A stretch of DNA of 501 nt from a phage, in the sequence record MH607138.1. The stretch is one strand, 5' to 3'. The stretch's first letter is position 1, and the number at the start of each line of letters is the position of its first letter. Shown piece after piece: positions 1 to 501 of the stretch. Both the position numbers and the translations under genes were made by a program. The notes beneath the pieces were generated by a model, which ran no database searches, was not told the DNA's origin, and saw only the letters and a list, made by a program, of their open reading frames with translations.

Positions 1-501
1 ATGCAGATCTTCAACATGCGTACCAACGACGAAGGTGTTCTGGGTCTGCGTCTGACCCTGTACAAAGACACCCGTGGTTTCTGGACCATCGGTGCTGGTA
101 TCTGGACCGTTTGCGCTAACCCGGTTTGCGCTGGTGCTCTGGACCGTATGATCGGTCGTAAATGCAACCCGACCGTTTGCCTGCTGAAAGCTCGTAAACA
201 GTTCAACAAAAAAGTTAACAAAGCTGGTCGTGGTGCTATCGCTGGTAACGCTTCTGTTAAACCGGTTTACAAATCTCTGAAAGCTGGTCTGGCTTCTGCT
301 CTGGTTAACATGGCTTTCCGTCGTGCTTCTTTCCCGTACAACGTTGCTTTCCGTTCTCTGCGTCTGCTGAAAAAACAGAAACGTTGGCGTAACCTGAACG
401 CTGGTAAAGCTTGCCGTAAATGGTACCGTCAGACCCCGAACCGTGCTAAACGTGTTATCAAAACCTGGGCTGGTGGTAAAGTTTCTCGTCGTGACATCGA
501 A
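1..501 (+). CDS. Phage T4-type lysozyme-like muramidase (GH24 / endolysin fold), synthetic codon-optimised variant; 167 codons, 3' end open (no stop codon in window)
   Basis: Seen in sequence: ATG at 1-3 and frame +1 open across all 167 codons (501 = 167 x 3). The other two forward frames hit stops early (e.g. TGA at 52-54 in frame +2, TAA in frame +3 near 116-118). Translation aligns by eye along its full length to T4 lysozyme as I recall it: MxIFxM..DEG at the N-terminus, LRLxxYKDTxGxxTIGxG, IGRxCN, KPVYxSL, INM, SLRxLxxKRW, WYxQTPNRAKRVI. Catalytic residues are conserved: Glu11 (nt 31-33), Asp23 (nt 67-69, = T4L Asp20), Thr29 (nt 85-87, = T4L Thr26). Codon usage is strictly one codon per amino acid (cgt, ctg, ggt, gct, aaa, acc, ccg, tct, gtt, aac, gac, gaa, cag, ttc, tac, atc, tgc, tgg, atg), so the DNA is a back-translated design. 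Product assignment rests on recalled T4L sequence, not a database search. Confidence 0.88.
   Translation, partial: MQIFNMRTNDEGVLGLRLTLYKDTRGFWTIGAGIWTVCANPVCAGALDRMIGRKCNPTVCLLKARKQFNKKVNKAGRGAIAGNASVKPVYKSLKAGLASALVNMAFRRASFPYNVAFRSLRLLKKQKRWRNLNAGKACRKWYRQTPNRAKRVIKTWAGGKVSRRDIE

Follow-up and report, generated by a model that had tools for sequence, protein, structure and literature searches.

A single lysozyme frame fills the window

The stretch of DNA analyzed here (the window, 501 nt in all) carries one reading frame, frame +1, which is open across its whole length and encodes a 167-aa T4-type lysozyme. The translation begins MQIFNMRTNDEGVLGLRLTLYKDTRGFWTIGAGIWTVCANPVCAGALDRMIGRKCNPTVCLL, and its N-terminus, MQIFNMRTNDEG, runs directly into the catalytic Glu11; no hydrophobic leader, export signal or signal peptide was found in this N-terminal part of the translation. 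A stop codon is absent, and the end of the frame coincides with the end of the protein alignment to lysozyme. The features used below are listed by nucleotide position, or by residue where indicated, with T4L standing for T4 lysozyme and P0001 for the best natural relative.

1-501, plus strand: open frame from ATG to the last base, 167 codons, no stop; back-translation of an artificial variant of RB69/T4-type lysozyme e (GH24, PF00959)
31-87, plus strand: retained catalytic residues Glu11 (31-33), Asp23 (67-69) and Thr29 (85-87), in invariant columns
37-45, plus strand: insertion of Val-Leu-Gly after Gly12, from the alignment
112-129, plus strand: first C-x4-C pair, Cys38-Ala-Asn-Pro-Val-Cys43, straddling the start of modeled helix B (alignment and models)
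Between residues Pro41 and Val42, plus strand: deletion of three residues (S-L-A) in the alignment with P0001
163-165, plus strand: Cys55, equivalent to T4L Cys54 and alone within the cluster in being ancestral; 12 of 14 aligned relatives have Cys here
178-180, plus strand: Cys60, which replaces invariant Thr59 (Thr in all 14 aligned relatives) and forms the second pair, C-N-P-T-V-C, with Cys55
295-297, plus strand: Ser99, where T4L and RB69 have their second natural cysteine, Cys97; C99S relative to P0001
412-414, plus strand: Cys138, an isolated fifth cysteine replacing Q/N/K/D of the relatives, from the alignment
Residues 34, 80 and 125: further insertions relative to P0001, in addition to two extra C-terminal residues

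The remaining frames and strands hold just three ORFs of 22-25 aa, with no frame longer than 25 codons, and an Rfam search of the window matched no RNA family; features hidden in another frame or strand, or in RNA, were rejected on these grounds.

The DNA is a back-translation

A single codon stands for each amino acid throughout all 167 codons (GCT, CGT, AAC, GAC, TGC, CAG, GAA, GGT, ATC, CTG, AAA, TTC, CCG, TCT, ACC, TAC, GTT), and a second codon is used for none of the 17 degenerate amino acids. This set corresponds to the classical E. coli 'optimal' codons. The natural RB69 e gene (L001), which served as the control for codon use, employs more than one codon for every one of the 17 eligible amino acids and has a GC content of 41.5%, compared with 50.1% for the window; 308 bases were identical in a global DNA alignment of the 501-base window with this gene. 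Under average E. coli usage the codon monotony has p ~1e-65, a rough value calculated with approximate frequencies.

Searches of DNA collections returned nothing related to the window: blastn against 50,697 phage records gave no DNA match, 72,556 plasmids showed no DNA similarity, and neither the IMG/VR viral contigs nor 185,579 species genomes contained an exact match to one 27- to 39-base stretch of it. Four peptides of the encoded protein likewise had no occurrence in a full-text literature search. The marks of a natural gene, namely mixed codons, a stop and DNA or close protein relatives in the collections searched, are all missing. Because the frame lacks a stop and ends where the lysozyme alignment ends, we regard the window as a back-translated protein and not a cloned gene. 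We conclude that the gene is not natural and that the window DNA was back-translated mechanically, with a single E. coli-preferred codon for each amino acid.

Relatives and family assignment of the encoded protein

A phmmer search of the PDB matched T4 lysozyme across residues 1-159 (E 1.7e-31), and the PF00959 profile score of 24.2 bits lies marginally above the gathering threshold of 22.3, with the natural relative P0001 scoring 52.5 bits. P0001 is annotated as 'lysozyme R' of Shigella phage ESh27, and its RB69 counterpart is AAP76030.1. It was the best of only 13 proteins recovered from a search of 5.8 billion clusters (56%), while HMMER over 1.84 billion representatives gave 45 matches, none at E <= 1e-30. 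By tblastn, 1,180 T4-like phages were matched, every one of them below 60% identity, and Mosigvirus (RB69-like) phages ranked at the top. No relative above 59% identity was found among about 15 billion proteins.

The earlier note had placed the protein with the T4-type lysozymes and compared it with T4L. The family placement holds; the nearest relative, at 56-59% identity to the window protein, is nevertheless of the RB69/Mosigvirus type and not T4L, which is 45% identical. The runs identical to P0001 comprise LRLTLYKDT, GFWTIG, LDRMIGRKCN, ALVNM and KWYRQTPNRAKRVI, with a 14-residue identical stretch at 140-153. Since such P0001-specific runs (LDRMIGRKCN, LRLTLYKDT and others) are kept, an RB69/Mosigvirus-type parent is preferred over T4, and T4L as the parent was rejected on this ground together with its lower identity.

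The catalytic columns are intact: Glu11 is retained, Asp23 aligns with T4L Asp20 and Thr29 with T4L Thr26, and D10, E11, G12, D23 and T29 are among the invariant columns that survive. The invariant core and structural residues of GH24 lysozymes have fared worse, with 30 of 81 such columns changed. Its profile score and catalytic residues make the protein a marginal member of the T4-type GH24 lysozymes.

Substitutions disregard conservation and raise the charge

Relative to P0001 the protein carries 69 substitutions, mostly non-conservative, with a mean BLOSUM62 score of -0.90; natural homologue pairs gave mean scores of -0.18 to +0.26. These substitutions are not enriched in variable columns (identity 63% vs 50%, p = 0.11). 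The 81 columns referred to above are invariant among 12 natural T4-like relatives, and the 30 that are violated include M106->R108, L133->K136, W158->V161 and T59->C60; Q105 is also changed to Arg. The changes M106->Arg, L133->Lys and W158->Val (T4L numbering) hit buried positions. Five or six indels relative to P0001 accompany these changes.

The substitutions also shift the charge. Fourteen of the 18 acidic residues are replaced by K/R/N/A/L, and the 37 K+R and 6 D+E residues yield a net charge of +31, compared with +7 for P0001 and +1 to +8 for the aligned relatives (K+R minus D+E); histidine is absent. A simple nucleotide-level mutation process, such as G->A, was rejected as the source of the E/D->K/N changes because many of the changes need two or three base changes and because Ala and Gly are abundant.

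Identity to P0001 is distributed in blocks, in which perfect runs alternate with almost wholly replaced stretches (aa 34-46, 57-66, 105-118, 130-139 and 156-167) that are strongly cationic and rich in Ala, Gly, Asn and Cys. This blocky arrangement suggests a generator that would keep motifs and refill the rest, and since it left the catalytic residues and long stretches of motif in place, such a generator would not have been blind noise. A natural divergent lysozyme was rejected on the single-codon usage, the lack of a match in the DNA collections and the non-conservative substitutions made without regard to conservation. The earlier note had treated the protein as a T4-type lysozyme of engineered or artificial origin, correctly so. 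The protein is an artificial, highly cationic derivative of an RB69/Mosigvirus-type lysozyme e.

Structure prediction returns low confidence

AlphaFold2 (AF2) run on the single sequence of the window protein gave a mean pLDDT of 59.1 and a pTM of 0.49, with pLDDT below 50 at residues 1-17, 21-23, 26-29, 31-46 and 76-83. Supplying a 14-sequence alignment did not raise confidence (mean pLDDT 54.7, pTM 0.44), and here the residues below 50 were 11-43, 56-60, 109-115 and 163-167. Most of the cysteine cluster lies at pLDDT below 50, and the region of the first pair does so in both models. A Foldseek comparison of a low-confidence AF2 model with T4L returned a loose match (TM 0.66, rmsd 6.2 A). The protein is probably poorly folded, its predicted foldability being low.

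In these low-confidence models helix B spans residues 41-48 or 41-51 and helix C starts at 57 or 61. Cys38 is thereby placed three residues ahead of helix B and Cys43 within its first turn, with Cys55 in the loop preceding helix C and Cys60 at the helix C start. Within each pair the cysteines enclose an Asn-Pro, and each pair is modeled as straddling a helix N-terminus.

One ancestral and four acquired cysteines

Five TGC codons, at nt 112-114, 127-129, 163-165, 178-180 and 412-414, encode Cys38, Cys43, Cys55, Cys60 and Cys138, in agreement with the earlier description of two C-x4-C pairs and a fifth, distant cysteine. Nucleotides 112-180 translate as CANPVCAGALDRMIGRKCNPTVC, with a spacing of C-x4-C / x11 / C-x4-C. 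The peptide quoted earlier, which opens W-T-V-C, is right in its residues and residue numbering, with the correction that it starts at nt 103 and not at nt 112. The pseudo-repeat that had been pointed out, TVCANPVC against CNPTVC, is real and extends to the DNA, in which GACCGTTTGC is present at 105-114 and 171-180 and GTTTGCGCT at 109-117 and 124-132. Since the codon for each amino acid is fixed, the repetition in the DNA only reflects the peptide repeats TVC, VCA and NP.

The alignment traces each cysteine to its column. Cys55 falls within the 10-residue run LDRMIGRKCN that is identical to P0001, and its equivalence to T4L Cys54 was correctly recognized at the outset, as was the alteration of the Cys97 column, which is occupied by Ser99 here. 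The counterpart of Cys38 is T34 and that of Cys43 is A42, the three-residue deletion lying between them; the relatives have T (or D/P) in the Cys38 column and A in the Cys43 column, and Cys in neither. Across 58 relatives, Cys is absent from the columns of Cys38, Cys43, Cys60 and Cys138 in every case, mostly T, A, T and Q/N/K being found there, in line with the earlier view that the cysteines of the cluster other than Cys55 are non-native. Thr59, which Cys60 replaces, caps the N-terminus of helix C, the long helix that joins the domains, and its replacement would be expected to lower stability. Thr59 was also the residue examined in a classic study of capping: among the structure-search matches, the PDB entries 1lyh, 1lyi and 1lyj from that work bear titles on helix capping at Thr59.

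In random placements of five cysteines over 167 aa, a span of 22 residues or fewer held four of them with p ~0.03, two C-x4-C pairs occurred with p ~0.004, and both together with p ~0.0008, all three values being post hoc. The clustering is unusual for random placement, though the sequence is no product of natural selection.

Origin and significance of the cysteine cluster

The cluster probably arose incidentally when the artificial sequence was generated and has no evolved or demonstrable designed function; the codon use and the alignments establish the non-natural origin and the lack of conservation, and it is the lack of function that we infer. The generator would have kept the family motifs verbatim (the Glu11/Asp23/Thr29 region, LDRMIGRKCN and KWYRQTPNRAKRVI) and would have refilled the stretches between them with non-conservative cationic replacements and indels, regardless of the fold. 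Cys55 would then have been inherited, and Cys38, Cys43 and Cys60 (and Cys138) would have arisen inside the rewritten stretches. With one cysteine inherited and the others born in this way, the cluster would be incidental and neither a metal site nor a disulfide staple. A design artefact had been offered earlier as one option among several; it is now the favored reading, given that Cys60 takes the place of the N-cap Thr59 and that the surrounding damage is blind to conservation.

The chemistry available to such a protein would depend on the compartment. As the protein lacks a leader peptide, with its catalytic Glu already at residue 11, it would be expected to stay reduced in the cytoplasm, and all five thiols would presumably remain reduced in that of E. 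coli. In air or in the periplasm, formation of the local i/i+5 loops C38-C43 and C55-C60 would be kinetically favored, and scrambled and intermolecular disulfides would likely form on oxidation as well. A C-x4-C disulfide ring is sterically feasible, being 20-membered and of the same size as the Cys1-Cys6 ring of oxytocin. If any chemistry takes place at the cluster, these local loops are likelier than a Cys4 zinc site.

Three observations run counter to an incidental origin, the first being the retention of catalytic residues and motif runs noted above. The joint clustering value (p ~0.0008, post hoc) may leave room for intent or for a motif learned by a model, and the architecture shared by the modeled pairs (loop Cys, Asn-Pro, first-turn Cys) could be that of a deliberate helix-N-terminal staple. 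An i/i+5 contact across an N-cap has the spacing of the 'hydrophobic staple' (N'-N4). One proposal is that C38-C43 and C55-C60 are engineered local disulfides that staple the N-termini of helices B and C, their purpose being to offset the destabilization brought by extreme positive supercharging in a lysozyme intended for external attack on Gram-negative bacteria. The i/i+5 spacing is the same in both pairs and fits the hydrophobic staple, each pair brackets an Asn-Pro helix start (41 and 57-61 in the models), rings of this kind exist in molecules such as oxytocin, and the clustering is non-random. Raising the positive charge of lysins is, moreover, an established engineering aim (review PMC6023083). 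Against this, design logic is found nowhere else in the protein: buried core residues are changed to Arg or Lys, 30 invariant columns are violated, and the region is also hit by indels. Cys60 deletes the very Thr59 N-cap that a staple would have to stabilize, an unpaired Cys138 has been gained while the natural Cys97 has been lost, AF2 confidence is below 50 in the region, and neither a signal peptide nor a signal-arrest-release (SAR) segment provides a route to an oxidizing compartment. The classic T4L work, furthermore, reportedly relied on long-range pairs with Cys54 removed. We consider deliberate local disulfides unlikely.

A broader proposal holds that the whole protein is a purposeful RB69-type lysin, supercharged to +31, whose helices B and C were each given an oxytocin-size C-x4-C disulfide loop at the N-terminus, or else a Cys4 metal site shared between these two ends. 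Were this true, the window would encode a redox- or metal-switchable, outer-membrane-penetrating lysin with its N-terminal lobe held together; we judge it improbable.

The metal-binding half of that proposal can also be taken by itself, as a Cys4 site for zinc or another metal grafted from Cys38, Cys43, Cys55 and Cys60. Four cysteines within 23 residues of a small domain, in two short-spaced pairs, are compatible with such a site, and C-x4-C makes up half of a few natural zinc sites, such as that of the ATCase regulatory chain. The segment itself resembles no known module, however: its 38 residues matched no Pfam family at E <= 10, zinc-binding and Cys-rich families included, and segments of 33 to 38 residues matched no PDB chain at E <= 10, so that a known zinc or Cys-rich domain was rejected. 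The usual CxxC or CPxCG knuckles are missing, and the ligands are unconserved, only Cys55 recurring among the relatives. In both models helix B (8-11 helical residues) separates the pairs, which would direct C43 and C55 toward opposite helix ends, and a shared site would require two helix starts to converge despite this intervening helix. GH24 lysozymes are not known to be metalloproteins. A grafted Cys4 site is therefore very improbable.

The weakest proposal, a natural divergent phage lysozyme that has merely been recoded and carries a cysteine redox switch like that of the SAR endolysin P1 Lyz, can appeal to the retained catalytic triad and to the existence of cysteine-regulated T4-fold endolysins, and is close to refuted by the lack of an N-terminal SAR or transmembrane segment ahead of a catalytic Glu at residue 11, by the lack of any catalytic residue flanked by cysteines (the first, Cys38, comes nine residues past Thr29), by the ceiling of 59% identity among about 15 billion proteins, by non-conservative substitutions blind to conservation, by a net charge of +31 where aligned relatives have +1 to +8, and by the synthetic DNA.

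We return, then, to an incidental cluster in an artificial sequence. The stabilizing disulfides or Cys4 zinc site raised in the earlier note are unsupported rather than refuted, the cysteines being unconserved, the segment being unmatched in Pfam and the PDB, and an export signal being absent. The four-Cys cluster is not real as a biological feature; it belongs to a single artificial sequence. The window should accordingly be flagged as synthetic, back-translated DNA for an artificial lysozyme variant, and the cluster should not be taken as a new natural metal site or redox switch of the T4 lysozyme family. If the protein were expressed, its five thiols (the Cys54 equivalent, three new ones nearby and an odd fifth) would be a liability, and together with the low predicted foldability they would favor disulfide scrambling and aggregation over stabilization. 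A free Cys54 thiol is a long-known nuisance in disulfide-engineered T4L.

Relation to known systems

The SAR endolysins P1 Lyz and Lyz103 resemble the window protein in being T4-fold muramidases in which cysteines of the N-terminal part control activity, through disulfide caging or isomerization. Xu et al. 2005 (Science 307:113) and Kuty et al. 2010 (J Bacteriol 192:5682) reportedly concern T4-fold endolysins under cysteine regulation. SAR endolysins depend on a Cys-bearing N-terminal SAR membrane segment, as well as on a caging Cys close to the active site. Unlike them, the window protein has neither, and it shows no N-terminal extension that would admit it to this group.

Cys4 zinc knuckles and ribbons likewise present four cysteines as two short-spaced pairs. 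The window differs from them in having C-x4-C in place of C-x2-C, a modeled helix between the pairs, and neither a profile match nor conservation.

The T4 lysozymes with engineered disulfides are alike in that non-native cysteines were put into a T4-type lysozyme. Their disulfides (3-97, 9-164, 21-142 and similar) link positions far apart in the chain, were selected on the basis of crystal geometry and sit in a Cys54-free background. Perry and Wetzel, and Matsumura and Matthews, reportedly built such long-range disulfides and removed Cys54 because its free thiol scrambles them. The pairs of the window are instead i/i+5, Cys54 is kept, a fifth cysteine is left over, and the scaffold is heavily damaged.

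The closest natural system is the RB69/Mosigvirus lysozyme e, with which the window protein is colinear over residues 1-159 and shares the equivalents of Glu11, Asp20, Thr26 and Cys54. It departs from that enzyme in having lost Cys97 and gained four cysteines, and its family score is halved (24.2 vs 52.5 bits).

Phage lysozyme serves as a standard benchmark in work on generative protein models (bioRxiv 10.1101/2021.07.18.452833; 10.64898/2026.05.01.722156). The window protein shares with machine-generated lysozymes the character of an artificial PF00959-like sequence far from natural ones, in which motif blocks are kept and the rest is rewritten, and set beside them it looks like a low-quality or deliberately perturbed sample and not a validated design.

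Codon usage and origin of the DNA

The whole of the window (1-501) is written with a single codon for each amino acid, a rule obeyed at 167 of 167 codons with the E. coli 'optimal' set, and it contains no stop codon. In the RB69 e gene, a natural comparison, 17 of 17 amino acids appear with several codons each. The one-codon rule together with the missing stop is the signature of mechanical back-translation. The fixed codons also account for five kinds of restriction site left in the window, so back-translation was not followed by a step to remove sites:

Restriction sites (window position)
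5, BglII
214 and 304, HpaI
261, AgeI
407, HindIII
422, KpnI

Relation of the protein to its natural parent

Identity to the RB69-type parent ('lysozyme R' of Shigella phage ESh27, the nearest natural relative) is blocky, with perfect runs of at most 14 residues interleaved with stretches that are nearly fully rewritten, as if motifs had been retained and the remainder refilled. Directly after the catalytic Glu11-Gly12 lies a three-residue insertion that is found in none of the 14 aligned relatives. Three further changes hit the core of the C-terminal lobe, at sites that are buried in T4 lysozyme (T4L).

Features of the encoded protein
aa 16-24, 26-31, 47-56, 100-104 and 140-153, perfect-identity runs
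aa 34-46, 57-66, 105-118, 130-139 and 156-167, nearly fully rewritten stretches
nt 37-45, Val-Leu-Gly insertion
nt 322-324, Arg108, replacing T4L M106
nt 406-408, Lys136, replacing T4L L133
nt 481-483, Val161, replacing T4L W158

The core changes, taken with a pLDDT of 55-59 for the predicted structure, suggest that a T4L-like fold may fail. The positive charge of the protein is extreme: 37 Lys and Arg residues are set against 6 Asp and Glu, giving a net charge of +31, and histidine is absent. The nearest natural relative has 18 acidic residues; 14 of them are replaced here, and only D10, E11, D23 and D48 are kept.

Comparison with natural and public sequences

In RB69 (AY303349.1, locus 301-789) the annotated start of gene e is the second Met, at locus 316; it is the ATG five codons upstream, at locus 301, that lines up with both the start of T4 e and Met1 of the window protein. 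The top matches in the library of 1.84 billion representatives (P0014-P0028, 258-514 aa) carry an embedded Cys-free T4L with Thr at position 54. These are probably crystallisation fusion constructs, and this public library would therefore contain synthetic sequences.
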